A DNA stretch of 64,000 nt from an uncultured delta proteobacterium (GCA_963782055.1 CAWAIF010000003.1:1504001-1568000); one strand, 5' to 3'; counted from the stretch's first letter, positions 4,698 through 64,000 are shown. Numbers and translations are program-made. The notes: generated by a model not told the origin, from the letters alone.

Positions 4698-6593
<1,896 letters not shown>

Positions 6594-6598
6594 GCACG

Positions 6599-8464
6599 TC
6601 ACGCCTCGGCGATCACCCGCAGGATCGCCTCGCCGTACTGCTCGGCGCGCGCCGGGCCCATGCCGTGGACGGCGAGCAGCTCCGCGATCGTCCGCGGCCG
6701 CGCCGCGGCGAGCTCCGCCAGCGTGCGGTCGAAGGCGACGACGTACGCCGGCACGCCGCGCTCGCGCGCGACCTCCGCCCGGTGCGTGCGCAGCCGCTCG
6801 AACAGCGCCTGGTCCGCGGCGGCCAGCGCGGGCGCAGCCGCCTGCCCTCGCGCGGACTGCTGCCCTCTCGACCTGCGCCTCGCGCGTGGCTCCGCGGGCA
6901 GCACGATGCGCGCCGGCGCGCGCCCCTTCATCACCTCCGCCCCGACGCCCGTCAGGAAGGGAACGGGGTGGTCGGTCGGGGTGAGATCGACCCACCCGGC
7001 GGCGAGCAGCGCCCGCAGCAGCGCCACGACCCACTCCGCCGAGCGGTCCTCCAGCAGGCCGAAGGTGGAGAGCCGCGTGAAGCCGAACCTGCGGGTCTTG
7101 TCCGAGTCCACGCCGCGCAGCATCTCGGCGATCGCCAGCAGCCCGGCGCGCCGGTTCGCCCGCGCCACGCCGGAGAGCGCCTTGCGGACCACCAGCGTCA
7201 CCTCCGGGTCCACCGCGCCGGCGGTGTCCTCGCCGCGCTCGTCGATGGCCTCGCACACGTCGCAGTGGCCGCAGCCGCCGAGCAGCTCCTGCTCGTCGCC
7301 GAAGTAGCGGAGCACGAAGTCGTGCCGGCAGGTGCGGGCGTCCAGGTACCGCAGCAGATCACGGAAGAGCGCCCAGGCGTGCGCGGCGAGCGCCGGGTCG
7401 TCCCCGTCCGCGAGCACCAGCCGGCGGCGCAGGGCGATGTCGGCGCCGGAGCAGAGCAAGAGGCCCGTGGCCGGCTGCCCGTCGCGCCCCGCGCGCCCCA
7501 CCTCCTGGTAGTAGGCCTCGATGGACGAGGGCGGCTGCACGTGGACCACCGCGCGGATGTCCGCCCGGTCGATGCCCATGCCGAACGCGTTGGTGGCGAC
7601 GACGACGTCGGTCTCGCGCGCGGCGAAGCGAGACGCGACCCGGGTGCGCGCGTCCCCGTCCATGCCGGCGTGGTAGTGGGCGGCGTCCCAGCCGCGCTCG
7701 CGCAGCAGCCCGGCGTACTGCTCGGTCGACTTGCGCGTGGCGGCGTAGACGATGGCGCCGCCGCGCGGGGAGCGCGCGTCGCCCAGCGCCTCGCCGAGCG
7801 TCTCGAGGAGCGCCGATCGCGCCTGCCGCGGGCCGTCGACGCTGCGCGCGCCGAGGTGCAGGTTGGGTCGCGCGAAGCCGCGCAGCACCTCGTGGCAGGG
7901 CTCCAGCTTCAGGTGCGCGCGGATCTCCTTGCGGACCTGGGGCGTCGCCGTGGCGGTGCACGCGAGCACGCGCGGCGGGCGCAGCCGCTCCAGCAAGCTG
8001 CCCAGCCGGAGGTAGTCCGGGCGGAAGTCGTGACCCCACTGCGAGATGCAGTGCGCCTCGTCGATGGCCACCAGCGAGATGTCGCACCGCCCGAGCAGCC
8101 CGACGAACGCGTCGGAGGCGAGGCGCTCCGGTGCGGCGTAGACGAGCGACCAGCGGCCACGAAGCATGTCCGCCTCCCGGCGCCGGCGCTCCGCGAGGTC
8201 CACCGTGGAGGCGAGGTACGTCGCCTCGATGCCGCGCGCCTGGAGCGACCGCACCTGGTCTTCCATCAGCGCGACCAGCGGCGAGATGACGAGCGTGGTG
8301 CCGCCCAGCATCGCCGCCGGGAGCTGGTAGGTCAGCGACTTGCCGCCGCCCGTCGGCGCGACCACCAGCACGCGGCCGGGCCCCTCCAGCAAGGCGACGA
8401 TCGCCTCGCGCTGCCACGGCCTGAATTCCTGCAGGCCGAAGCGTTCGCGCAGCACCTCTTCCAT
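6599..8464 (-). CDS. recQ: RecQ-family DNA helicase with RQC and HRDC domains
   Basis: PTGGGKSL, DEAHCISQWGHDFRPDY, TATAT, AFGMGID, YQEVGRAGRDG, CGHCDVC, C-terminal HRDC (VPAYVV..DRTL.EL). Confidence 0.95.
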   Translation of the reverse strand: MEEVLRERFGLQEFRPWQREAIVALLEGPGRVLVVAPTGGGKSLTYQLPAAMLGGTTLVISPLVALMEDQVRSLQARGIEATYLASTVDLAERRRREADMLRGRWSLVYAAPERLASDAFVGLLGRCDISLVAIDEAHCISQWGHDFRPDYLRLGSLLERLRPPRVLACTATATPQVRKEIRAHLKLEPCHEVLRGFARPNLHLGARSVDGPRQARSALLETLGEALGDARSPRGGAIVYAATRKSTEQYAGLLRERGWDAAHYHAGMDGDARTRVASRFAARETDVVVATNAFGMGIDRADIRAVVHVQPPSSIEAYYQEVGRAGRDGQPATGLLLCSGADIALRRRLVLADGDDPALAAHAWALFRDLLRYLDARTCRHDFVLRYFGDEQELLGGCGHCDVCEAIDERGEDTAGAVDPEVTLVVRKALSGVARANRRAGLLAIAEMLRGVDSDKTRRFGFTRLSTFGLLEDRSAEWVVALLRALLAAGWVDLTPTDHPVPFLTGVGAEVMKGRAPARIVLPAEPRARRRSRGQQSARGQAAAPALAAADQALFERLRTHRAEVARERGVPAYVVAFDRTLAELAAARPRTIAELLAVHGMGPARAEQYGEAILRVIAEA

Positions 8465-8498
8465 CCCGACCTCGTCGGCGCGAGCGCGCGGCCCGTTG

Positions 8499-8879
8499 CT
8501 ATTCGCGGTAGGTGGCGCTGCCGATGCAGCGCAGGAGCCGCCGGCAGGGGGCGTTGCCCGTCTGCCCGTGGCAGGTGTCCTCCACCTCGAACTGCGGCTG
8601 GCCGGCGTAGAGGGCACGCATCACCGCGTCGGTGATCTCGTGGCCGCCGTCCTTGCAGGCGGGATCCCCGCAGGGGAGCCAGAAGAGCGCAGGCGCGTGA
8701 TCCACCACGATATGGCGGATGTGCGAGGGTTCACCCACGCCGCCGCCGCCGGATTGCTCCTCGACGTCGAGCCGCAGGCTCTCCAGCTTGGGGACCTGGG
8801 TGAGCAGGCGTGGCGCTTCGTCCTCGCGGCGCCGGCGCTCGGCGAACCGCAAGGCCGCCTCGGAGGAGCGTCGATTCAT
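8499..8879 (-). CDS. Small Cys-rich hypothetical protein (possible Zn-binding)
   Basis: 126 aa with C-x4-C-x3-H and C-x8-C motifs; ends 34 bp upstream of recQ, same strand. Confidence 0.7.
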   Translation of the reverse strand: MNRRSSEAALRFAERRRREDEAPRLLTQVPKLESLRLDVEEQSGGGGVGEPSHIRHIVVDHAPALFWLPCGDPACKDGGHEITDAVMRALYAGQPQFEVEDTCHGQTGNAPCRRLLRCIGSATYRE

Positions 8880-8972
8880 CACCCTCAAACCATAGCACTT
8901 TTCGAGAGCGCGCGCCGTTTCGATGACGCCACAACGCGCTCGCCCGAGCCGGCGTGGTGGTACGCTCGCGTC

Positions 8973-9419
8973 ATGACCAAGCTCCCCAAGCAATCCTTTC
9001 TCGCGCTCGCCGCCATCGGCTGGGCGGACGGCGCGCTCCAGCGCATCGAGGCCACCGGCCTGCTGAGGGCCGCGAAGGAGTCGGGCGTCTCCCCGGAGGA
9101 TTACGCCGCGATCGAGCAGGCGACGAAGAACAAGATCGCGCTCGAGGACGTCGACGTGGGCGGGATGAGCGAGTGGGAGCAGGTGCTCACCTACGCGCTC
9201 GCCGCGTGGTTCGCGCAGCTCGACGGCGTCGTCTCCACGAGCGAGCACACCACGATGGTGGACCTGGGCGACAAGCTGGGCCTGGACGAGGCGCTGCGCA
9301 AGCGCGCGGCCGTCGCCGCCTACGACATCGCGTGTCTGCCGGAGGGTGGCCGCCCCAATCGCTACGACTTCGTGAAGCTCGGCGAGCGCCTGCACGAGCG
9401 CATGCCGCAGCTCGGCTGA
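8973..9419 (+). CDS. TerB-like (tellurite resistance) domain protein
   Basis: WADGxL..IE and AQLDGVVSTSE TerB-type motifs. Confidence 0.7.
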   Translation: MTKLPKQSFLALAAIGWADGALQRIEATGLLRAAKESGVSPEDYAAIEQATKNKIALEDVDVGGMSEWEQVLTYALAAWFAQLDGVVSTSEHTTMVDLGDKLGLDEALRKRAAVAAYDIACLPEGGRPNRYDFVKLGERLHERMPQLG

Positions 9420-9421
9420 CG

Positions 9422-10447
9422 ATGGGACTTCGACGCCGGCTCGTCGATCTGCGGCGGAGGGCCACCCTCGCCGCGACCGACAAGTTCTTCGTGTCGCTCT
9501 CCGCCGCCGGCCGCATGCACCCGCTCGCGGCGCCGGAGCGGCACAACGTGGAGCTGGTGCGCGACGTGCCGTACGTGCCGGGTGGCGACGCCGCGCACCG
9601 GCTGGACGTCTGGCGGCCGCGGGATGCCAGCCCGGACGCGCCGCGGCCCTGCATCTTCTACGTGCACGGCGGCGGCTTCCGCATCCTGAGCAAGGACACC
9701 CACTGGATCATGGGGCTCATGTTCGCGCGCGCCGGGTACGTCGTGTTCAACGTCAACTACCGCCTCGCCCCCGCGCACCCCTTCCCGGAGGGCCTGCGCG
9801 ACGTGTGCGACGCCCTGCGCTGGGTAGCCGATCACGCGACGGAGTACGGCGCCGACCCGGGCGAGCTGGTCTTCGCCGGGGAGAGCGCCGGCGCCAACCT
9901 CGTCACCGCGCTCACCCTCGCCACGTGCTACGCGCGGCCGGAGCCCTGGGCGCGCGCCGTCTTCGACCGCGGGGTGGTCCCGCGCGTGGTGCTGCCCGCG
10001 TGCGGCCTGCTGCAGGTCACCGAGCCGGGGCGCTTCGCGCGGCGCTGGCCGCACCTCGCCACCTTCGCCCACGACCAGATCGTCGTCATCTCGGAGCAGT
10101 ACCTCTCCCGCGCCGCCGAGCTGGACCCGAGGACGCTGGACCTCGCCGATCCGCTCCTGGTGCTCGAGCGCGGCGACACGCCGGACCGGCCGCTCCCGCC
10201 CTTCTTCGTCTCCGTCGGCACCCGCGACCCGCTGCTCGACGACGCGCGCCGGCTCACCCGCGCGCTCGTCACGCGCGGCGTCGACGCCGAGCTCGCCGTC
10301 TACGCGCGCGAACCGCACGCCTTCCACGCCGTCGTGCTGACGAAGAACGCGCGCCGCTGCTGGCGCGATACCTTCCGCTTCCTGGGCGATCACCTGGGCG
10401 CCGGGCCCGACGCCGAGCGCATGGCCGGCCCGGTCGCCGACGTTTGA
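9422..10447 (+). CDS. Alpha/beta hydrolase, HSL family esterase/lipase
   Basis: HGGGF, YRLAP.HPFP, GESAG, DPL, HAF. Confidence 0.92.
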   Translation: MGLRRRLVDLRRRATLAATDKFFVSLSAAGRMHPLAAPERHNVELVRDVPYVPGGDAAHRLDVWRPRDASPDAPRPCIFYVHGGGFRILSKDTHWIMGLMFARAGYVVFNVNYRLAPAHPFPEGLRDVCDALRWVADHATEYGADPGELVFAGESAGANLVTALTLATCYARPEPWARAVFDRGVVPRVVLPACGLLQVTEPGRFARRWPHLATFAHDQIVVISEQYLSRAAELDPRTLDLADPLLVLERGDTPDRPLPPFFVSVGTRDPLLDDARRLTRALVTRGVDAELAVYAREPHAFHAVVLTKNARRCWRDTFRFLGDHLGAGPDAERMAGPVADV

Positions 10448-52464: not shown

Positions 52465-52659
52465 GGTGTCCGGGGACAGGGGAGGGGGACAGGGGGTCGG
52501 GGCTTCGGTGGTTGAGCTGGCGGGGGGGAGCGGCTGCCGGCGGGTTGTTGGCGGCAGCGTGTGGCTTTGCTGGGCTACGTGGCCAGCTTGCGGTGAGGAT
52601 GGGGTGCACGCCCGTGACGGGGCGCGTTGGCGCGGGCGCCAGCGGCACGTGGTTGGACT

Positions 52660-53736
52660 ATGCTCCACGCCGTGCGTCCGTCCCACGTCCTGGCGACCGT
52701 CCTCGTGCTGGCCACCACGCTCGGGGGTGGGGCGCTGGAGTGCAGCACCCGCGCGCAGGTCCGCGCGCAGCGCGGCGAGCGGATCTACGGGAAGATGTGC
52801 GCCGTCTGCCACGGCGCGGCGGGGGAGGGTTACAAGGCGGACAACGCGCCGGCGCTCGGGCACCCGAGCTTCCTCGCGTCGGTCAGCGACGACTTCCTGC
52901 GCGACACCATCACCGACGGGCGCGGAGCCACCACCATGTCCGCGTGGGGCGCCGAGCATGGCGGACCGCTCCAGCCAGACCAGGTCGACGCGCTCGTCAC
53001 CTTCCTCCACACCTGGGAGATGATGCCGCGCGCCAACCTGGACGAGCGCCCGCTCGCCGGGGACTCAAGCCGCGGCGCCGGCATCTTTGCGCGGGAGTGT
53101 ACGCGCTGCCACGGCATCCGCGGCCGCGGCGGGCCGAACGTCAGCGTCGGCCACCCGCAGCTCCTCGCGCACGCCTCCAACGGCTTCCTGCGCTACGCCA
53201 TCCGGCACGGCCGACCAGGCACCGCGATGCCTGCCTTCGGCGACAAGCTGGGCGACAGGGGCATCGACGACGTCATCGCCGCCCTCCGAGGCTGGCGTGC
53301 CGCGGACCTGCCGCGCTTCCGCCCGCCGCCGTCGCGCTCGCCGCCGCTCCCGCTCGGCCCCGTGCCCCTCAACCCCGACGGGCCGGAGCCCGTGGGCTTC
53401 CGCAAGTCGCCGCTCACCACGCCGGCGGAGTTGATCAAGGGCCAGCTCGATCGCGGCGCGCGCATGGCGCTGCTGGATGCGCGCGCGCCCTCCGATTACA
53501 CCCGCCAGCACATCGCCGGCGCCGTGAGCGTCCCCTTCTACGATCCCGACCCGTACGTTCCGCTGCTCCCGAAGGACGCCTGGCTGGTCTGCTACTGCTC
53601 CTGCCCGCACGCCGAGTCGGGGCAGCTTGCCGCGAAACTCCGCGCCAAGGGGTTCACGAAGGTCACGGTCCTCGACGAGGGCCTAGGATTCTGGAACCGG
53701 CAGGGCTACCCGACGCACACTGGCGCCGACCCTTGA
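52660..53736 (+). CDS. Di-heme cytochrome c fused to rhodanese domain
   Basis: Signal peptide; CAVCH and CTRCH, each with downstream Met (T.MS/TAMP); LDAR....Y...HI.GA, YCSCPH, LDEG..W. Confidence 0.88.
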   Translation: MLHAVRPSHVLATVLVLATTLGGGALECSTRAQVRAQRGERIYGKMCAVCHGAAGEGYKADNAPALGHPSFLASVSDDFLRDTITDGRGATTMSAWGAEHGGPLQPDQVDALVTFLHTWEMMPRANLDERPLAGDSSRGAGIFARECTRCHGIRGRGGPNVSVGHPQLLAHASNGFLRYAIRHGRPGTAMPAFGDKLGDRGIDDVIAALRGWRAADLPRFRPPPSRSPPLPLGPVPLNPDGPEPVGFRKSPLTTPAELIKGQLDRGARMALLDARAPSDYTRQHIAGAVSVPFYDPDPYVPLLPKDAWLVCYCSCPHAESGQLAAKLRAKGFTKVTVLDEGLGFWNRQGYPTHTGADP

Positions 53737-55186: not shown

Positions 55187-56449
55187 TCACTCGCTCCCTG
55201 ACGACACTCCGCCGCGCCGCGCGCGCACCAGCCGCTCGGCGATGACGACGTGGCGGCGCCACTGGCCGTACATCGCGCCCTCCGACTCCAGCCGCGCCAT
55301 GCCCAGCGCCGTCGCCTCGTCGATGGGGGTCGGCACCGCGTCACGCAGCGGCGTGCCGGGCAGCGGCATGAAGGCGTGGCTGTGGATGCGCGCGCCCATC
55401 GCCACCAGTCTGTCGGCCAGGGCGAACGTCGCGGCGCGGTCCGCCTCCGTCTCGCCGGGCAACCCGAAGAGGAAGTCCACGTCGGCGCGGAAGCCCATCG
55501 CGCGGCATGTCTCCACCGCGCGCACCACCTCCGCCACGCCGTGGCCGCGCCGGGTGGCCTCCAGGAGCCGGTCCGACCCGCTCTGTGCGCCGACGATGAG
55601 CGAGCGGTTGTCCGCCCACCGCGCCAGCACCTCCAGCGCCTCCCGCGTCAGGTGCTCCGGCCGCACCTCCGAGGGGAACGTGCCGAAGTAGATGGCGCCG
55701 TCCTCGCCCAGCTCCTCGCGCACCGCGCGCAGCAGCGCCTCCACCGCGGCGAGGTTGGGCTCGGTCCCCTCCGACCCGTACGAGAGCGACGTGGGGGTGA
55801 CGAAGCGCATGAAGCGGGCGCCCTGCGCGTGCATGCGCGCGACCTCCCCGCGCGCGTTCTCCACGCTGCGGTGGCGAAAGCGCGCCTTGAACACGTATGG
55901 AGTCTGGCAGAAGGCGCACGCGTAGACGCACCCGCGCGTCAGCTCGATGGGGTTCCACTTGCCGAAGCGCTCGTTGAACGAGGGGAATGCGTCCAGCGGC
56001 GCGCGAGGGCCCGGTCCATGCGAAACCAGGCGATCCCGCTCCAGGTAGGCGAAGCCGGCGAGACCGTGCGCGTCGCCGCCGCGCGCCACGAGCTCGACGA
56101 TCGACGTCTCTCCCTCGCCGAGGGCCACCACGTCGAAGCTGGCCCGCAGCGTCGCGAGCGGCTCCGCCGTCGCGTGCACCCCACCCGCCACGTGCACCCC
56201 GCGCGAGGTGCGCGCGCGTACCCGGGCGAGGTCGGCGGCGGAGGTCTCGAAGTCCGGCGAGTAGAAGGACCAGAGGACGAGCACCGGCCCTGCCGCGGTG
56301 TCGATGGCGTCCACGAGCTCGTCCACGCCGCCGGCGAAGACGACGTCCGCGCCGGCGGTGCGCGCGTCGGCGTCCAGCGCCGCCGTCACCACGTTGAGCG
56401 CCGCGCGTCCGCTCCGCGCGTGGTGCGCGACGACGCGCGGACGGGTCAC
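55187..56449 (-). CDS. B12-binding-domain radical SAM protein (TIGR04013-like)
   Basis: GGVHAT..P, GEGE, IELTRGCVYACAFCQ, FPSEVRPE, GAQSGS, FMPLPGTP; GTG start overlaps the upstream stop. Confidence 0.88.
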   Translation of the reverse strand: MTRPRVVAHHARSGRAALNVVTAALDADARTAGADVVFAGGVDELVDAIDTAAGPVLVLWSFYSPDFETSAADLARVRARTSRGVHVAGGVHATAEPLATLRASFDVVALGEGETSIVELVARGGDAHGLAGFAYLERDRLVSHGPGPRAPLDAFPSFNERFGKWNPIELTRGCVYACAFCQTPYVFKARFRHRSVENARGEVARMHAQGARFMRFVTPTSLSYGSEGTEPNLAAVEALLRAVREELGEDGAIYFGTFPSEVRPEHLTREALEVLARWADNRSLIVGAQSGSDRLLEATRRGHGVAEVVRAVETCRAMGFRADVDFLFGLPGETEADRAATFALADRLVAMGARIHSHAFMPLPGTPLRDAVPTPIDEATALGMARLESEGAMYGQWRRHVVIAERLVRARRGGVSSGSE

Positions 56450-57129
56450 TCGAAGCCTTGCGTGATGGCGGCGGGCCGGGCGTGCTCCGCCGCCGACGCC
56501 TGCACCGCCGCCCCCGCCGCCGCGAGCATCCCCACCGCCGCGATCCCGATGCTCAGCCGCCGGATCCTGTGGCGGCGGCGCGTGCCCCAGGGGCAGTCGT
56601 CGGTGAGCACCGTGCCGTCGGTGCGGCGATAGAAGCGCACGCACACGTCGCCGCGCGCCTTGCTCTCCAGCAAGGCCTCCGCCTGCTCGGCCGTCATCGC
56701 GGTCAGGTCGTGGACGTTCTTCTTGCACATGGCGCAGAAGCGGGTGCTGTCAGTCCCGGACATCTCGCTCCAGAGCGCGGGGCACGGCGCGGCGACGTGC
56801 AGCGTGGCGAGGTGCGGGAGCTGTCGTCGCACGCCGAGGCTCTCGATCTGCCGGCGCACCGACTCGATCTCGCGCATCACCGCGTCCTCGCGGCCGCGCG
56901 GAGGCTCGACCGCCTCCCGCGCGCGCCGCGCCTGCGCGATGTCCCGCTCGAGCGAATCCGGCGCGCGGTACGGGGCGACGGTGCCGCGGTGGGCGTCGCG
57001 CGACCCTTCCAGCCGGCGTTCCTCGCTGCGCAGCTCGCGCGCCTTCTCGGTCCCCCGCCGGATCTCCTCGAGCGAGGCCTGCAGTGCGTCCTCGCGCGTC
57101 CTCAGCCCACCGAGCGTGCGATGGTTCAT
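56446..57129 (-). CDS. Coiled-coil plus Cys-cluster membrane-anchored protein
   Basis: PC...W..M.G....RFC..C.KNVHDL..M...EA..LL.....CVR.YRR.DGT..T.DCP followed by a TM helix. Confidence 0.75.
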   Translation of the reverse strand: MNHRTLGGLRTREDALQASLEEIRRGTEKARELRSEERRLEGSRDAHRGTVAPYRAPDSLERDIAQARRAREAVEPPRGREDAVMREIESVRRQIESLGVRRQLPHLATLHVAAPCPALWSEMSGTDSTRFCAMCKKNVHDLTAMTAEQAEALLESKARGDVCVRFYRRTDGTVLTDDCPWGTRRRHRIRRLSIGIAAVGMLAAAGAAVQASAAEHARPAAITQGFE

Positions 57130-57244: not shown

Positions 57245-58702
57245 TCACCCCAGGCGCTCGAGCACCGCGATGACGTGCTCCGGGCTGCGCTCGCTCAGCT
57301 TGCGCAGCTTGGCCGCGTCGAAGAACGCGATCGTCGTCTCCGGGCGCGCCACCGCGGTGATGGGCGAGGCGATCTGGTGGAGGGCGTCGCGCATGCCGAA
57401 GAACTGGTCGGCGGGCACGGTGCCCACCTCCCTCTCGCCCTGGAAGAGGGCGAGCTCCCCGCGCGCCACCAGCAGGGCCACGTCCGGCACCACGTCGCCC
57501 AGCAAGAGGAGCGTCTCCTCCTTGAAGGTCTCCAGTCGCTGGATGCACGCCAGCATCTCGTCGCGCACGTGCACGTCGAGCTGGCTCATCGTCTCGTGCA
57601 TGGAGAAGAAGGAGTCGATGCGGTGGAGCTGCTTGGTGGAGACGATGCGCTCGGCGAAGCCGGTGTCCTTCGTCATCGCCAGCTTGACGATGGCGGCGGG
57701 GAGGACCCACACCTCGCTCACGCGCTCCGCGCGCAGCGTCGCCGTGCAGTGCGGCTCGCCCTCCACCAGCACGCTGGACTCGCCGAGCAGCCAGCCGGGG
57801 TAGCAGCAGCGCACCAGCCACGAGCCGCCGGAGGGTTTCTCCAGGAGCACGCCCACCAGCCCGCTGCGGACGACGAACACGTTCCTCGACGGCTCGCCCT
57901 CCTGCACGAGCACCTCCTCCGGCGCCAGGGTGCGCAGCTCCGCCTTCTCGGCGAGCCACGCGCTCACGTCCTCCGGCAGGCCGGCGAAGCTGCGGCAGTC
58001 GGTGAGCGCGCCGAGCGGCGTCAGGCGCTTGCGCCCGTCCTCCAGGAGCTGGTGGATGGGGGAGCGGCCGTAGGCCTCCTTGCCCAGCATCTCCAGCGCG
58101 GTCGCCCCGACGCGCTCGAGCGCGGTCATGTCGAAGCGGTCGGCGAGCTCGCGCGCCGCGGCCTCCAGGTAGCCGAGCGCGAGATGCTCCTGCCCGAGAG
58201 CCTTCTCGACGCGCGCCATCCGGAACAGGGTGTCACCCTGGGTCTCGTGATCGCGGAGCAGCCGCGGGAGCTGCTCGCGCGCCATGCGCAGCGCCTCCAG
58301 GTTGCCGGCCGCGAGCGCCTTGTCGACGCGCGCCTCCAGGTCATCGAGGGAGCTCGGCGCGATCTCGTCCAGCATGTCGCCGACATCGTCCTCGCCCCCG
58401 CCCAGGTCGGCGAAGTCGCCCATCGGATCGGGGGGCGGCGGCGCGAGCGACGCGCGCGCGAGGTGGTTGCGCACTGCCTCGACCACGTCGTCTGGGCCGA
58501 TCAGGCGCGAGAGCTTGCCGTCGTCCTCGACGGTGACGTCGGCCACGTGGATCGCGCCCGAGGGCGCGTTCAGCACCACCGTGACGTCCCACGCGTCGTC
58601 GGCGACGCGTCGCACGCGTCGCACGTCGCGTACCTCAAGCAGCCTGCCGAACTCGCGGCGGAGCTGCTCGGTGACGGCCTCCCACACTTCTTCGCGTGTC
58701 AC
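57245..58702 (-). CDS. Tandem cyclic-nucleotide-binding domain protein
   Basis: QEGE.....VV.SG.V, GESS......TAT; second FFG....A-type cNMP domain. Confidence 0.82.
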   Translation of the reverse strand: MTREEVWEAVTEQLRREFGRLLEVRDVRRVRRVADDAWDVTVVLNAPSGAIHVADVTVEDDGKLSRLIGPDDVVEAVRNHLARASLAPPPPDPMGDFADLGGGEDDVGDMLDEIAPSSLDDLEARVDKALAAGNLEALRMAREQLPRLLRDHETQGDTLFRMARVEKALGQEHLALGYLEAAARELADRFDMTALERVGATALEMLGKEAYGRSPIHQLLEDGRKRLTPLGALTDCRSFAGLPEDVSAWLAEKAELRTLAPEEVLVQEGEPSRNVFVVRSGLVGVLLEKPSGGSWLVRCCYPGWLLGESSVLVEGEPHCTATLRAERVSEVWVLPAAIVKLAMTKDTGFAERIVSTKQLHRIDSFFSMHETMSQLDVHVRDEMLACIQRLETFKEETLLLLGDVVPDVALLVARGELALFQGEREVGTVPADQFFGMRDALHQIASPITAVARPETTIAFFDAAKLRKLSERSPEHVIAVLERLG

Positions 58703-59025
58703 GCGCCAAGCCTACCGGGCTTTGGCCGCGCTCGAAACTGAGGTCCGCCCGGAGGGCGGCCGACAGCCCGAAGGGCACGCAGACTGAGGCCACCGGACAG
58801 ATCGCGCGCAAGTGCCTGAAATTTGGTCGCGCCAGCCGGACTTCTGGTCCTGTTCAGCTTGCATGTCGGGCGGGGATCTGGTGTGTTCGTTGGGATACTG
58901 CTTCCGTGGCGTTGATCCGCCGTCCGGCCCGTGTCGGATGTGCCTTCGTCGCGCCGCGCTACGAGCCCGCCAATTCCGGCGATCGGGCGTCAGGGGAGGC
59001 GTATCGGAAACACAAAGGGAGCTCG

Positions 59026-60711
59026 ATGAAGGAACACGCCTGGCAAACCCTGTCCCAAGCAACCCCCGAAGTGGCGGCGCCCAACAAGCCCGCCGACCCG
59101 CGCCTCGAGGCCATCTGGGCTCGCGCCTACCGCGCGAAGACCCGCGATGACCTCAAACAGCTCTACGCCGACTGGGCCGAGACCTACGACGCCGACCACG
59201 ACACGGTCGGGTTCTTCGGGCACCGGTTGACGGCCGAGGTGCTGGCGCGGCAGCTCACGCGACGTGACGCTGCGAGGGTTCTGGACGCGGGTGCCGGGAC
59301 GGGTGCGGCGGGCGAGGCGCTCGCCGGCCTGGGCTTCAAGGACCTCGTCGCCGTCGATCTCAGCGACGCGATGCTCGCGCGCGCAAGAGAGAAGGGCGTG
59401 TACTCGCAGACGATGGTCGCGGACCTCTCGCTGCCGGTCGACGCCTTCGGCGACGACGCCTTCGACGCGGCGGTGCTCGTCGGCGTCTTCTCCTACGGGC
59501 AGGCCCCGGCGGAGGCGCTCGACGAGATCATCCGCATGGTGCGGCCTGGCGGCGTCGTCGCCTTCACCCTCCGCACCGACTTCTACGGCGAGGACGCCAT
59601 GGGCGTCCGCACCAAGATGCAGCTCCTCGAGCGACGCGGCACGTGGCACCTGCTCGAGACCACCGAGCCCGCGCCGTACCTGCCTGGCAAGGATCCCGAA
59701 GCCAAGTTCCAGGTGTGGTGCTACCGCGTCACCGGCCAGAAGACGCCGGAGGTGGAAGAGGGCTTCGACACCGCGGTGCGCGAGGCGCTCGCGGGCGACG
59801 ACTGGGTGAAGAAGATCGACCACGCGTGGATCTGGGACTCCACCGCCTCGCGTCTCTACGATCGCTACACGCAGACGGCCGGCTACTACCTGACGGACTG
59901 CGAGGAGGAGATCCTCCGCGACCGCGCGAAGGAGATCCTCGGCGAGGAGCGCCTCGTCGTGGAGCTCGGCTGCGGCTCGGCGCGCAAGATCTCGCACGTG
60001 CTCCAGGCGTGCGTCGATCGCGGCGGCCCCGTCCGCTACCTCCCGATCGACGTGTCGAAGGGCGCCCTCAAGGCGACGGAGGCCGACGTGCGCCGCCGCT
60101 TCGGCGACAAGGTCACCATCGAGCCGCGGCAGGGCATGTTCGACGACGTGCTGCCGACGCTGCCGGTGGGCGAGAAGAAGCTCGTCTTCTTCTTCGGCTC
60201 CTCCATCGGCAACCTGGACACGATCGACGACACGGTGACGTTCCTCGCGCGGCTGCGCACGCGGCTGCACCCGGGCGACCGGTTCGTCGTCGGCATGGAC
60301 CTGCACAAGGACGAGTCGGTTCTGGAGGCGGCGTACAACCACGAGGAGGCGTGCCGCGCCTTCTTCGCGCACATGATCCGGCGCATCAACGAGCACCTCG
60401 GCGCCGACTTCGACCCGCGCGTCTTCAAGCTCGCCTCGGAGTACATCCCGGAGAAGACGAAGGCGCCTTTCCGCTCGTGGCGCATGGCCCTGCGCGTCGC
60501 GCCGACGGAGCCGCAGCACACCTGGGTGCGCGCGCTCGGGATGGAGGTGCACCTCGAGCCGGGGCAGCCGGTGCAGGTGGGTCTCTCGCGCAAGTTCGAG
60601 CCGGAGAGCATCGCCAAGCTCGCGGGCCTGGCGGAGCTCAAGCTCACGCGGCAGTGGCTCGACAAGCGCAAGTGGTTCTCGCTCAACGAGCTCGAGCTTC
60701 CTTCCGGATGA
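59026..60711 (+). CDS. Fusion: class I SAM methyltransferase (METTL27/WBSCR27-like) plus EgtD/Methyltransf_33 domain
   Basis: N-terminal LY.DWA.TYD, VLDAGAGTG, VDLS..ML; C-terminal YYLT..E.EIL, VELGCGS.RK, PIDVS, GSSIGN, G.DL.K....L.AAY, S.KF; AAAGGGAG RBS. Confidence 0.9.
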   Translation: MKEHAWQTLSQATPEVAAPNKPADPRLEAIWARAYRAKTRDDLKQLYADWAETYDADHDTVGFFGHRLTAEVLARQLTRRDAARVLDAGAGTGAAGEALAGLGFKDLVAVDLSDAMLARAREKGVYSQTMVADLSLPVDAFGDDAFDAAVLVGVFSYGQAPAEALDEIIRMVRPGGVVAFTLRTDFYGEDAMGVRTKMQLLERRGTWHLLETTEPAPYLPGKDPEAKFQVWCYRVTGQKTPEVEEGFDTAVREALAGDDWVKKIDHAWIWDSTASRLYDRYTQTAGYYLTDCEEEILRDRAKEILGEERLVVELGCGSARKISHVLQACVDRGGPVRYLPIDVSKGALKATEADVRRRFGDKVTIEPRQGMFDDVLPTLPVGEKKLVFFFGSSIGNLDTIDDTVTFLARLRTRLHPGDRFVVGMDLHKDESVLEAAYNHEEACRAFFAHMIRRINEHLGADFDPRVFKLASEYIPEKTKAPFRSWRMALRVAPTEPQHTWVRALGMEVHLEPGQPVQVGLSRKFEPESIAKLAGLAELKLTRQWLDKRKWFSLNELELPSG

Positions 60712-61481
60712 TCAAGCTGGAGGGGGTCTCGCGCACGTTCAAGGCTGACGGGCGAGACCCCGTCCGCGCCCTCGTCGGCCTCGATCTGCAGATCGAGACC
60801 GGCGAGACGATGGCCCTGCTCGGGCCGTCGGGGTGCGGAAAGACCACGACGTTGCGGCTGCTCAACCGGCTCCTCGAGCCGACGGGCGGCCGCATCCTCG
60901 TGGGCGGCGAGGACACCGCCGCGCTCGACCCGGTGCTCTTGCGGCGCCGGATGGGTTACGTCGTGCAGCGCGGCGGGCTCTTCCCGCACATGACGGTGCG
61001 CCGCAACGTCGGCCTGCTCTGCGACCTGGAAGACTGGCCGAAGCCGAAGACCGACGCGCGCGTCGACGCGCTGCTGGAGCTGGTCAACCTCCCTCCGGCC
61101 GAGTTCCGCGATCGGTACCCGCGCGAGCTCTCCGGTGGGCAGCGGCAGCGCGTGGGCGTGGCCCGCGCCCTCGCCCTGGACCCGGAGATCCTCCTGATGG
61201 ACGAGCCCTTCGGCGCGCTCGATCCCATCACCCGCCGCAAGCTGCAGAAGGACTTCCTGGCGATGGAGCACCTGGTATCCAAGACCATCGTGATCGTCAC
61301 CCACGACCTGGACGAGGCCTTCCTGCTGGGGGATCGCGTCGCGATCCTGCGCAAGGGCAGGCTGGTGCAGGTGGGGACGCCGGAGGAGATCCAGGTGACG
61401 CCGGCCACCGACTGGGTGAGGCGCTTCATCGCGAGCAGCCACCCGCCGGCGGAGGCCGTGGCTGAACAGGGGGGCGCCTGA
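60708..61481 (+). CDS. Osmoprotectant/ergothioneine-type ABC ATPase (OpuBA/YehX/EgtV-like)
   Basis: GPSGCGKT, YP.ELSGGQ.QR, MDEPFGALDPITR, VTHD; ATGA overlap with the upstream gene. Confidence 0.93.
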   Translation: MIKLEGVSRTFKADGRDPVRALVGLDLQIETGETMALLGPSGCGKTTTLRLLNRLLEPTGGRILVGGEDTAALDPVLLRRRMGYVVQRGGLFPHMTVRRNVGLLCDLEDWPKPKTDARVDALLELVNLPPAEFRDRYPRELSGGQRQRVGVARALALDPEILLMDEPFGALDPITRRKLQKDFLAMEHLVSKTIVIVTHDLDEAFLLGDRVAILRKGRLVQVGTPEEIQVTPATDWVRRFIASSHPPAEAVAEQGGA

Positions 61482-61483
61482 GC

Positions 61484-63073
61484 GTGCGCGCGCGCGTGCT
61501 GCTCGCGGTCGTCGCCCTGCTGGTGCTGGTGGGCGTGTCCGGCGCGCGGGCGCCGGCGGCCCGTGCCGCCCCGGCGAGCAGCGGCCACATCGTCATCGGC
61601 TCCAAGAACTTCACCGAGTCGCGCATCCTGGGCGCGATGCTCACGCTGCTGGTGCGCTCGCGCACGCACCTGACCGTCGAGCACCGCAGCGGCCTCGGCG
61701 GCACGCTGGTGTGCTTCGGCGCGCTCAAGAGCGGGGAGATCGACCTCTACCCCGAGTACACCGGCACGGCCTGGTCCATCGTGCTCAAGGAGCCGACGAA
61801 GATCACCAGCCGCCTCCACGCCTTCCTGGAGGTGCAGAAGAAGTACCGGCAGATCTACGACATCGAGTGGATGGAGCCCTTCGGCCTGAACAACACCTAC
61901 GCGCTGGCGATGCGCGAGGACAAGGCGAAGGCGCTGGGCGTGCGGACCATCTCCGATCTCGTCCCGCACGCGAAGGACCTGAAGGCCGGCTTCAGCATCG
62001 AGTTCATGAACCGGGAGGACGGCTGGCCCGGCCTCGGCCCGTACTACGGCCTGCGCTTCGGGCAGGCGCGGTCGCTCGAGCACGGGCTCGGGTACGAGGC
62101 CATCGCCAACGGATCCATCGACATCATCGACGCCTACTCCACCGACGGGAAGCTGATGCGCTACCCGCTGCGCGTCCTGGACGACGACCGTCACTTCTTC
62201 CCGCCGTACAACGCCGCGCCCATCGTGCGCGGTGACACGCTGCGCGCTCACCCCGAGCTCAAGGACGCGCTCGACGCGCTGGCCTTCAAGATCGACGACA
62301 AGACGATGATGCGCCTCAACTACGAGGTGGAGGAGAAGGGCAGGGGCTTCCAGGAGGTGGCGCACGATTTCCTGGTGAAGAACAAGCTCCTGGACGCCAG
62401 CGTGAAGATGGGGACCGACGCCACGGCTGGCCGCGGGTCCTTCCCGTCGTTCCTGGCGAGCCGGTGGAAGGAGACGCTGCGCCTCGGCTGGCAGCACATC
62501 GAGCTCACCCTCGCGGCGGTGCTGCTGGCGGTGCTGCTCGCGGTGCCGCTGGGGATCGCCATCACGCGCAGCAGTCTGGGGGAGCGGATCGCGCTGGGGT
62601 CGGCGGGGGTGCTGCAGACCGTCCCGAGCCTGGCCCTGCTCGCCTTCATGATCGCCATCCCGGGGCTGGGGCTCTCGGTGCGCTCGGCGATCCTGGCGCT
62701 CTTCCTGTACGCCATCCTGCCCATCCTGCGGAACACGCACACCGGGTTGAAGGACGTGGACCCCGACCTGATCGACGCGGCCACGGGGCTGGGGCTCACG
62801 CCGGCTCAGATCCTCTTCAAGGTGCAGCTCCCGCTGGCGACGCGGACGATCATGGCCGGGGTGCGGACGGCGACGGTGATCAGCATCGGCGTGGCGACGC
62901 TGGCGGCGTTCATCGGCGCGGGCGGGCTGGGGGAGCCGATCGTGACGGGGCTCTACCTGAACGACACGTGGTTGATCCTGTCGGGGGCGATCCCAGCCGC
63001 GGTGCTGGCGCTGGTGGCGGACTGGGGGCTCGGGCGCGTGGAGAACTGCCTGACGCCAAGGGGGATCCGGTAG
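61484..63073 (+). CDS. Fused betaine-type substrate-binding protein plus permease (OsmF/EgtU-like)
   Basis: GSKNFTE, YPEYTGT, NNTYALA, EF..REDG, DAYSTDG, FFPPY; then QT.PSLAL, EAA-like loop, GAGGLG. Confidence 0.93.
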   Translation: MRARVLLAVVALLVLVGVSGARAPAARAAPASSGHIVIGSKNFTESRILGAMLTLLVRSRTHLTVEHRSGLGGTLVCFGALKSGEIDLYPEYTGTAWSIVLKEPTKITSRLHAFLEVQKKYRQIYDIEWMEPFGLNNTYALAMREDKAKALGVRTISDLVPHAKDLKAGFSIEFMNREDGWPGLGPYYGLRFGQARSLEHGLGYEAIANGSIDIIDAYSTDGKLMRYPLRVLDDDRHFFPPYNAAPIVRGDTLRAHPELKDALDALAFKIDDKTMMRLNYEVEEKGRGFQEVAHDFLVKNKLLDASVKMGTDATAGRGSFPSFLASRWKETLRLGWQHIELTLAAVLLAVLLAVPLGIAITRSSLGERIALGSAGVLQTVPSLALLAFMIAIPGLGLSVRSAILALFLYAILPILRNTHTGLKDVDPDLIDAATGLGLTPAQILFKVQLPLATRTIMAGVRTATVISIGVATLAAFIGAGGLGEPIVTGLYLNDTWLILSGAIPAAVLALVADWGLGRVENCLTPRGIR

Positions 63074-63177
63074 GGGGAGAGGGCGCGGGCTCCATCGCGC
63101 GCAGCGGGCGTGGGACGGACCGGTGGGGCACGCCGTCACTGGTGGCGGTCGCTCCGCGGCGCGTATCCTCGGTCGCC

Positions 63178-64000
63178 ATGATCCCGTCCACCACCCCGCC
63201 AGCTTCCCGCTTCACGCGTCTCGCCGTGCTCGCCGCCGCGCTGACCTTCCCCGCCGCCGGCTGCTCCAAGACTTCGCCGAGCGCGACCAGCGCCGGCGTG
63301 CCCGCCCGCAGCGCGGCGGTCGCGGCCCCCGCCGGCTCCGCCAGCGCGGCGGTCGCCGCGGGCCCGTCCGCCGCGATGCACGTGGATCCGCCGCGTACCG
63401 ACGCCGCGCGCGTGGAGGTGCCCATCTCGCAGGTGAAGCTGCCCGACGGGACCATCCGCTACTGGGTCCCCGTGCGCGTCGGCCGCGGCAAGCCGATCCA
63501 CGCGATGCTCGACACGGGCTCGAGCGGTCTGCGGGTGCTGGCGGCCGCGCTCTCCCCGGGCGACTACGAGGAGACGCCGCAGACGCAGCAGTACCACTAC
63601 GCCAGCGGCGTGACGCTGGAGGGCCCGCTCGCCCGGGCGGCGGTGCGCGTCGGCACCCTGCGCGCGGGCAAGATCCTGGTCCAGGTCGTCAAGAGCGTGC
63701 ACTGCGGGGCGCGCAAGGCGCACTGCGCGGCGGCGCACCTGGCGCCTGGCCAGTACCGCATCGGCGGCGACGGGCTCGCTGGCCAGGGCTTCGAGGCGAT
63801 CCTCGGCGTGTCCGTCCGCTCGCCGCTGACCGGCGCGGCGGTCAACCCGCTCGCCGGCATCGGGGAGCAGGCCTGGGTGGTGGAGCTCCCGCTCCCGACG
63901 GCCCCCGCCGACGCGCACGGCACGCTGCTGGTCAACCCGACGGCGGCCGACCGCGCGGGCTTCCAGATGCTGCCGGTCCCTCCGAAGGACCACGCCGCGC
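63178..64000 (+). CDS. Pepsin-like aspartyl protease lipoprotein, 3'-truncated by window edge
   Basis: Absent from the ORF track (no stop); lipobox AAGC; RY.V.V.VG....AMLDTGSSGL, Y.SG, ILG. Confidence 0.75.
   Translation, partial: MIPSTTPPASRFTRLAVLAAALTFPAAGCSKTSPSATSAGVPARSAAVAAPAGSASAAVAAGPSAAMHVDPPRTDAARVEVPISQVKLPDGTIRYWVPVRVGRGKPIHAMLDTGSSGLRVLAAALSPGDYEETPQTQQYHYASGVTLEGPLARAAVRVGTLRAGKILVQVVKSVHCGARKAHCAAAHLAPGQYRIGGDGLAGQGFEAILGVSVRSPLTGAAVNPLAGIGEQAWVVELPLPTAPADAHGTLLVNPTAADRAGFQMLPVPPKDHAA

Follow-up and report, generated by a model that had tools for sequence, protein, structure and literature searches.

A METTL27-like::EgtD-like methyltransferase fusion linked to an Opu-type ABC transporter: a probable betaine synthesis-and-recapture operon in bacteria

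Overall organization of the operon

The window analysed here, a 64,000-nucleotide stretch of DNA from an uncultured delta proteobacterium (GCA_963782055.1, CAWAIF010000003.1:1504001-1568000), carries a three-gene operon in which a fusion of two methyltransferase domains is followed by the ATPase and the substrate-binding protein (SBP)-permease of a transporter belonging to the ATP-binding cassette (ABC) type. We read this operon, with moderate confidence, as a compatible-solute synthesis-and-recapture module that makes the betaine of a non-histidine, probably small and neutral, amino acid. The reading draws on the observed gene order and coupling, the folds, conserved residue changes, the linkage of fusion and transporter, and the association with a regulator. 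Many relatives keep the operon behind an osmolyte-type repressor, so that an osmotic (salt or drought) role is likely.

59026..60711, + strand: fusion methyltransferase gene, a 561-residue open reading frame (ORF) with a METTL27-like N-domain and a divergent Methyltransf_33/EgtD-like C-domain, predicted to be dependent on S-adenosylmethionine (SAM)
60708..61481, + strand: ABC ATPase gene (ABC_tran) of the ProV/OpuCA type without CBS domains, 257 residues, its start lying in an ATGA overlap
61484..63073, + strand: SBP-permease gene, 529 residues, GTG start; OpuAC and BPD_transp_1, with the SBP N-terminal to the permease

The ORFs, the ATGA overlap of fusion and ATPase (60708-60711) and the 2-bp gap between ATPase and SBP-permease (61482-61483) are as a first-pass annotation of the window had described them. 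The rewired pocket, the fusion and the ABC linkage that it noted are confirmed, and the non-hercynine betaine that it proposed is the most likely product; its framing of the system around ergothioneine finds no support.

A rewired pocket in the EgtD-like domain

The C-domain matches PF10017 at fusion residues 249-555 (227 bits). The AlphaFold model of the fusion has a predicted local distance difference test (pLDDT) value of 88.5 and a predicted template modelling (pTM) score of 0.82, and its C-domain superposes on EgtD (PDB ID: 4pio) with a Z-score of 37.6 and a root-mean-square deviation of 1.9 Å over 304 residues; identity to EgtD chains is 31–32%. The fusion nevertheless scores under the cut-offs of the EgtD equivalog TIGR03438 (191.9 vs 290.9 bits; the fusions of other carriers reach at most 200), of the EasF family TIGR03439 (121.3 vs 205.55) and of the GSMT/SDMT family NF051855 (20.9 vs 350).

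Residue equivalences were taken from a HMMER alignment to EgtD chains. For conservation, a pooled alignment of 307 rows with a domain of more than 230 residues was divided into family and outside rows at a gap in hidden Markov model (HMM) score, 286.9 vs 229.3 bits, a split that is partly circular.

59746..60708, + strand: EgtD-like domain; Y287/Y437/S521 (EgtD Y56/Y206/S284), N396/G391 (N166/G161) and ELGCGSA.K kept, histidine side-chain residues replaced
59818..59835, + strand: signature D265-H266-x-x-I-W270 (EgtD P34-P35...Y39) near the methyl-acceptor site; of the 146 family rows, 145 have H and 144 have W, compared with W in a single one of the 161 outside rows
60364..60366, + strand: Phe447 for EgtD Asn217, a change shared by all 146 family rows; 131 of the 161 outside rows have Asn
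60580..60582, + strand: Gly519 for EgtD Glu282, again in all 146 family rows; of the 161 outside rows, 152 have Glu and 4 have Gly

The first-pass annotation had noted the loss of Glu282 by manual alignment, together with the changes of FYD to IWD and TAAFN to CRAFF and the retention of YY, GSSIGN and the SAM motif (ELGCG). All of these are borne out by the HMMER alignment, and the pocket is rewired family-wide; the alignment places Gly519, not a glutamate, at the 282 site. The change of IEM to WRM, also noted then, is present in the window protein but is no trait of the family: among the 120 rows listed, the position of W485 holds Trp in 33 and Arg in 65, that of M487 holds Met in 56 and Val in 63, and Met252 itself is kept in the window protein. 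Further replacements are Cys443 for Thr213, Trp270 for Tyr39, Tyr278 for Phe47, I50Y and P35H; the Thr213 site is Cys or Asn in 145 of 146 family rows. Gly282, Phe217, Tyr206, Ser284, Asn166 and Gly161 are invariant in the family, with His35 in 145 and Trp39 in 144 rows, and the SAM motifs of both methyltransferase domains are invariant as well.

Asn217, like Glu282 and Thr213, belongs to the imidazole pocket of EgtD. The importance of Glu282 is indicated by PDB entry 4pip, whose title names a M252V/E282A variant of EgtD crystallised with tryptophan. Tyr56, Tyr206 and Ser284 are described as the carboxylate ligands of EgtD, Asn166 as its amine ligand and Thr213 as positioning an imidazole-bound water (PMC8593015), and, according to a review, sequential methylation depends critically on Asn166 and Gly161 (PMC9103826). 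The carboxylate- and amine-binding residues (Y56, Y206, S284, N166, G161) are kept in 145–146 of the 146 family rows; since all their equivalents are retained, we infer that catalysis takes place on the alpha nitrogen.

The side-chain pocket is a different matter. The contacts from Glu, Asn and Thr are lost, and a crude sum of residue volumes over six positions taken as pocket-lining changes by only -10 Å3, as against -73 Å3 for the Trp-accepting variant. Together with the ProX-type SBP described below, the lost contacts and nearly unchanged net volume argue for a substrate side chain that is neutral and no larger than that of histidine. The analogy with homologs methylating Trp or Tyr, drawn in the first-pass annotation from the Glu to Gly change, is thereby weakened because the Asn to Phe change offsets it. 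A non-hercynine amino-acid betaine, as first proposed, would still be the most likely product, in keeping with the family-wide pocket change. The methyl-acceptor site appears remodelled, since the position of EgtD Lys36 is Ala, Ser or Cys in the family and a new Asp-His pair is near-invariant; the residue volume there rises by 105 Å3.

Conservation and distribution of the fusion

A family search matched 213 proteins. Among the 120 matches listed, identity to the window fusion is 51–100%, the source names include Kofleriaceae, Vicinamibacterales, Planctomycetota and Gemmatimonadota, and the database name is 'L-histidine N(alpha)-methyltransferase'; source names of family proteins also cover Myxococcota and Acidobacteriota. 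In a quick IQ-TREE analysis of 71 of the 307 domains, rooted at the midpoint only, the 30 family rows fall on one side of a long branch with an SH-aLRT (Shimodaira–Hasegawa-like approximate likelihood ratio test) value of 100. At least 500 residues are present in 128 of 145 family proteins, and most of the shorter ones begin inside the N-domain. Two members, P0128 (327 residues) and P0176 (336 residues), appear to be stand-alone C-domains without an N-domain; P0176 is on a basal branch, and its residues 50 and 280 in EgtD numbering are Trp and Asp. Glu282 is also absent from nine PF10017 proteins outside the family (P0297, P0259, P0294, P0209, P0203, P0171, P0241, P0245, P0283). One of them, P0297, has Trp39, Phe217 and Gly282, yet the tree groups it with ordinary EgtDs, which suggests convergent rewiring of the pocket.

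The coupling to the transporter is conserved along with the pocket. The ATPase lies 3' of the fusion in 17 of 20 loci of a first set, where the sequence of the other three stops less than 200 bases on, and in all 11 of a second, making 28 of 28 loci with room for it (two of the linkage loci, L097 and L107, are one sequence). Such conservation of fusion and linkage is far above chance. Besides a MarR regulator, no recurring neighbour was found across the loci. A contig scan with generic N-domain motifs returned full-length loci in only 3 of 80 cases.

Carriers are rare: 2 of 401 genomes of the window's phylum, none of the 28 others in its family, and 3 of 301 and 11 of 301 genomes in two other classes. 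No family member was found in a Gemmatimonadota-centred sample of 301 genomes, a scan that had no positive control. The patchy distribution may reflect spread by gene transfer. Some copies look broken: L012 has a frameshift in the EgtD-like domain (8664-9597), L103 a 5'-truncated fusion (5930-7357), L137 a partial MarR gene (6545-6841) and L140 a fragmented ATPase (8428-9103). These may be assembly errors or decay.

The transporter resembles ProX rather than EgtU

The second AlphaFold model is also confident (pLDDT 90.7). The SBP has a ProX-type aromatic cage, Y92/Y139/Y218/Y242 and N137, and a carboxylate clamp formed by K41/T95/R177; both features are described for the F-III group (10.1101/2022.05.02.490363, PMC9732360), and the comparison also drew on 10.1101/2025.07.28.667264 and PMC12341727. 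The ATPase scores 290.9 bits against TIGR01186, whose cut-off is 326.6. The first-pass annotation had called the importer EgtUV-like, a view that finds no support here. Gly244 is reported as invariant in EgtU, where G244F lowers ergothioneine affinity 100-fold (10.1101/2022.05.02.490363, PMC9732360). At this site the operon SBP has Phe43, and Phe is present in 22 of 23 rows with one gap, as it is in AfProX; the S. pneumoniae and Listeria EgtU proteins have Gly, and that of H. pylori has Ser. The first lobe of the SBP is closest to AfProX. The F293/Y337 switch of EgtU corresponds to Tyr92/Leu135, unlike the S. pneumoniae and Listeria proteins, while Glu375 of EgtU has a kept equivalent in E173.

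The F-III cage and the Phe at the Gly244 site suggest that the ligand is likely to be a betaine of fairly small size that already carries its methyl groups. Such a ligand agrees better with a product being recaptured than with an amino acid being taken up as precursor. This SBP is the sole one of its kind found in the genome. A history of the transporter lineage as a neighbour of egt genes was considered and rejected, as egtD lies near 1 of 20 related SBP-permease loci and egtB near none of the 20. In L186:7988-8914 a canonical egtD stands directly 3' of a related ATPase/SBP-permease pair that has no fusion.

An osmolyte-type regulator in relatives

Enough 5' sequence for a judgement is available at 23 loci, and 12 of them have a MarR gene immediately 5' of the operon, usually co-directional and sometimes overlapping its start; it is divergent in L012 and L104, partial in L137, and in L142 it stands at a locus without the EgtD-like domain. 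The deeper branches mostly keep the regulator and the window and its closest relatives are without it, which suggests that it was lost in the window's clade.

The operon MarR has 36 plasmid matches at 37–42% identity. Of the eight that were opened, six are divergent from ectA of ectABC, one from a BCCT gene, and one has no recognised osmolyte neighbour; an HMM of 11 operon MarRs scores 149–160 bits on five of these plasmid genes. The assignment to the EctR/CosR type was made from the plasmid relatives and their neighbours. EctR and CosR are described as repressing genes by which osmolytes are synthesised or taken up (PMC13342039, 10.1101/845297). Such a regulator in relatives is not visible from the window and points to osmoprotection.

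An 18–19-nucleotide palindrome, TGCTTTG-N4/5-CAAAGCA, was chosen by eye 5' of the regulator-bearing loci; a score of at least 11 of 14 is reached at 8 of the 12 loci with the regulator, at 0 of the 11 without it, and in 0 of 600 stretches drawn at random from the genome. The published operator motifs of CosR and PA3458 (PMC8070244) were chosen independently of the loci analysed here. They exceed shuffled sequences 5' of regulator-bearing but not regulator-less loci (one-sided p of 0.006, 0.04 and 0.0001), with the caveat that related loci are not independent. In the window's clade, where regulator and operator are absent, a different promoter-like element is conserved.

58859..58887, + strand: predicted promoter-like element (TTGCAT, 11–13 nucleotides, ATCTG, -10-like hexamer), about 170 nucleotides 5' of the fusion

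This pattern, picked by eye from the same loci, occurs in 7 of 11 regulator-less loci, the window included, and in 0 of 12 regulator-bearing ones; the whole 7.6-Mb genome contains six occurrences.

The METTL27-like domain

59089..59745, + strand: METTL27/WBSCR27-like class I methyltransferase domain, SAM motif LDAGxGTG and Asp111 invariant

The best solved match of fusion residues ~45–216 is the mouse/human-type METTL27/WBSCR27 (7qcb, E 4e-23), which is also the best non-EgtD match of the fusion model in Foldseek. Atlas clusters are named METTL27 at 0.98; apart from that, Atlas yielded generic PF10017 and class I methyltransferase clusters only. The METTL27 assignment denotes the nearest solved relative and language-model neighbours. 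The best NCBIfam match is the carboxyl methyltransferase BioC, far under its cut-off (60 vs 342), and none of the plasmids searched has an N-domain relative at E 1e-12. Mammalian METTL27 is described as having no known substrate, with a small molecule not excluded (PMC9240639).

Two loci show related domains in other settings. In L014:1-16594 a stand-alone METTL27-like gene, 43% identical to the N-domain, neighbours GbcA-like Rieske oxygenase, FadH/OYE oxidoreductase and glutamate-synthase-like genes, all under cut-offs; this single context hints at methylated-amine metabolism. In L142:6021-8000 (G865:C105) a MarR gene precedes a METTL27-like domain that runs in frame, exactly at the inter-domain linker, into a C-terminal part that looks asparagine-synthetase-like by eye, with neither EgtD-like domain nor ABC genes. 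This arrangement is probably a misassembly or deletion.

Points against the betaine reading and alternative explanations

Several observations weigh against an osmolyte betaine module. The regulator is missing from 11 of 23 loci, the window and its closest relatives among them, and the operator is absent from the window locus. No EctR/CosR gene was found in the window genome, whose MarR-like ORFs score at most 78 bits with the HMM of operon MarRs. The palindrome consensus failed on three of three held-out ectR-ectA spacers (scores 10, 10 and 8), so that we do not equate it with the ect operator, and the CosR/PA3458 motifs show no excess over shuffles in six ectR-ectA spacers. On the transporter side, the H. 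pylori EgtU has Tyr92 and a GGT motif in common with the operon SBP; Tyr92 is thus not discriminating, and the Gly244 site alone separates the two proteins. The pocket-volume sum is, as said, crude. A second EgtD occurs in 15 of 16 carrier genomes, compared with 55 of 151 and 66 of 101 in their classes. Finally, a true EgtD (TIGR03438, 321 bits; Glu282 kept, Asn217 replaced by Thr) lies between fusion and ATPase at L099:5426-6436, the sole such locus. The last two observations hint at a link to histidine betaine.

They count in favour of one alternative, in which the module acts on hercynine or ergothioneine that the cell either produces with its own EgtBD or imports. One domain would add another methyl group, e.g. 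to the thione sulfur or to the imidazole, and a histidine betaine would be what the transporter takes up. The excess of second EgtDs (baselines of 36% and 65%) is accompanied by egtB-like genes in five of five genomes tested. The first-pass annotation had found no egtB, which holds for the window but not for the genome: on contig C2 an egtB (535 bits, cut-off 360) adjoins a canonical egtD (365 bits) with Glu282, Asn217 and Thr213 present. Divergent from this pair is a 465-residue gene with PP-loop-like GGKDS and Cys motifs (L003:2775-4172, G000:C2). The aromatic residues W270, Y278 and Y281 could moreover hold a trimethylammonium group, and the SBP keeps the EgtU glutamate as E173. On the other hand, the fusion lacks T213 and E282, which contact the imidazole, Phe occupies the Gly244 site of the SBP, related SBP loci lack egt genes almost throughout (egtD 1 of 20, egtB 0 of 20), and the regulator is of the osmolyte type. 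The co-occurrence is also confounded by kinship and genome size, carriers being mostly larger than 5 Mb, and 15 of 16 carriers have an EgtD apart from the fusion, by which hercynine synthesis is already covered. We regard this alternative as unlikely. As to other osmolyte routes, ectC was found in 1 of 16 carriers; none of the 16 gave a GSMT (NF051855) match, but neither did the controls, so that absence is not shown.

The C-domain might instead trimethylate an aromatic amino acid (Phe, Tyr or Trp), with O-methylation by the N-domain yielding a hypaphorine- or sticticin-like metabolite. The Trp variant 4pip comes first both by sequence and in Foldseek, if only marginally, and the N-domain has BioC, at its far-sub-threshold score, as best NCBIfam match. 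Trp/Tyr trimethylases of fungi reportedly belong to the EgtD family (Vit, 2015). The N217F change, however, cancels the space gained (about -10 Å3 vs -73 Å3 for the Trp variant), the SBP pocket is of the small-betaine type, and tailoring or precursor genes are not conserved around the operon, so an aromatic betaine seems improbable to us.

A further possibility is that only one domain is catalytic or that the substrate is not a free amino acid, e.g. the EgtD-like domain being a betaine sensor or feedback module, or a sulfur compound such as methionine being turned into a sulfonium osmolyte. ProX-type cages can also bind sulfoniums. The remodelled methyl-acceptor site (Lys36 to Ala/Ser/Cys, the Asp-His pair, +105 Å3) would be in line with this, as would the pTM of 0.82, which may indicate fixed packing of the domains; the invariance of the SAM motifs in both domains and the stand-alone-looking C-domains P0128 and P0176 speak against it, and we give it a low probability. 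That the fusion is simply a second histidine trimethylase, as its fold, its closest structures and its database name would have it, is very improbable given a score under the TIGR03438 cut-off, the absence of E282, N217 and T213, a separate long-stem clade, and redundancy with canonical EgtD in 15 of 16 genomes.

Proposed mechanism and comparison with known systems

In the betaine synthesis-and-recapture module that we favour, the EgtD-like domain would transfer methyl groups from SAM to the alpha nitrogen of an amino acid that is neutral and not histidine, giving a betaine. The METTL27-like domain would most likely carry out one of the methyl transfers to this molecule, an additional or complementary one, by analogy with the fused GSMT-SDMT betaine synthases; this is the least certain part of the scheme. 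In the first-pass annotation the extra domain was suggested to add an O-, S- or N-methyl group, which may be the case. The Opu-type transporter would re-import or scavenge the betaine under osmotic stress, and in the loci that keep the regulator, MarR would repress the operon at low salt. The operon would work like known osmolyte synthesis-plus-uptake clusters, with a fusion that falls outside EgtD, EasF and GSMT/SDMT, and an importer outside EgtU, by the tests made.

Compared with EgtD (PF10017, TIGR03438; 4pio, 4pim, 4uy7 and the Trp variant 4pip), the fusion has the fold, SAM motif and carboxylate/amine residues in common; it differs in E282G, N217F, T213C/N, Y39W, F47Y, I50Y and P35H, in being joined to a second methyltransferase, in its linkage to an ABC importer instead of egtB, and in falling under the family cut-off. 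Fused GSMT-SDMT (GMT-DMT) proteins, for which fused GMT/DMT genes are described (PMC7824335), and two-domain phosphoethanolamine methyltransferases likewise carry two SAM methyltransferase domains per chain and are presumed builders of quaternary amines. The domains of the fusion belong to neither family, the phosphoethanolamine enzymes giving only weak fold matches; its amino-acid site is derived from EgtD, and its product is a prediction. The N-domain has METTL27/WBSCR27 (7qcb) as best solved match in sequence and fold, but unlike the mammalian protein it is bacterial, fused and placed inside a betaine-transporter operon.

In the relatives, the arrangement recalls the EctR/CosR clusters (ectR-ectABC-ask, cosR-bcct, betIBA-proXWV and P. 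aeruginosa PA3458-PA3461): a MarR protein of the same sequence type, at ~40% identity, stands beside synthesis and uptake genes with a similar operator-like motif. Here, however, the synthesis gene belongs to a new methyltransferase family, and the regulator is usually co-directional and missing in the window's clade. With EgtU(V) and the F-III proteins AfProX/OpuC/OpuF the transporter has in common an SBP-permease fusion, a CBS-less ATPase, the aromatic cage and the carboxylate clamp. Its SBP is N-terminal to the permease, whereas that of EgtU is C-terminal, and Phe at its Gly244 site together with His in place of Pro401 make it ProX-like rather than EgtU-like; Phe293 is replaced by Tyr, a residue that the H. 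pylori EgtU also has. Among the papers listed for EgtD, betaines and METTL27, few of them subscription papers, we found no published description of a METTL27-like::EgtD-like fusion.

Flanking sequence and neighbouring genes

The operon has a G+C content of 69–70% and its flanks 71–77%. A sigma-70 scan gave 0 sites, no terminator was found 3' of the operon, and Rfam gave 0 matches across window positions 58000-64000. Three RNA library runs, two of which look like one data set, contain short contigs that match portions of the fusion gene exactly, at a depth of 2–3; transcription is not claimed from them.

52627-53736, + strand: di-haem cytochrome c carrying a fused rhodanese domain; no operon link found
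55187-56728, - strand: B12-binding radical SAM protein; no operon link found
57245-58702, - strand: divergent neighbour, a protein with two cyclic nucleotide monophosphate-binding domains, not beside the operon in relatives
63178-64000, + strand: DUF3443/aspartyl-protease-like ORF, secreted-looking, running past the window end; G+C there is 77%

Implications

The EgtD family gains a separate, purely bacterial branch that databases label as histidine methyltransferase. Because this label sits on a branch with a rewired pocket, predictions of ergothioneine from these genes are likely to be wrong. The link to EctR/CosR turns an 'unknown betaine' into a directly testable question, with a one-gene methyltransferase and a cognate SBP at hand. 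The family proteins bear names from Myxococcota, Acidobacteriota, Planctomycetota and Gemmatimonadota, groups about whose osmolytes little is known. The operon also places a METTL27-like domain in the context of a small-molecule pathway. More tentatively, the system may represent a bacterial osmolyte route built on the scaffold of an ergothioneine enzyme, leading to a new bacterial compatible-solute betaine or convergently to glycine or proline betaine, with the METTL27-like domain carrying out a defined small-molecule methylation. If that were true, it would give a first substrate class for the orphan METTL27/WBSCR27, a human gene in the Williams-Beuren deletion.

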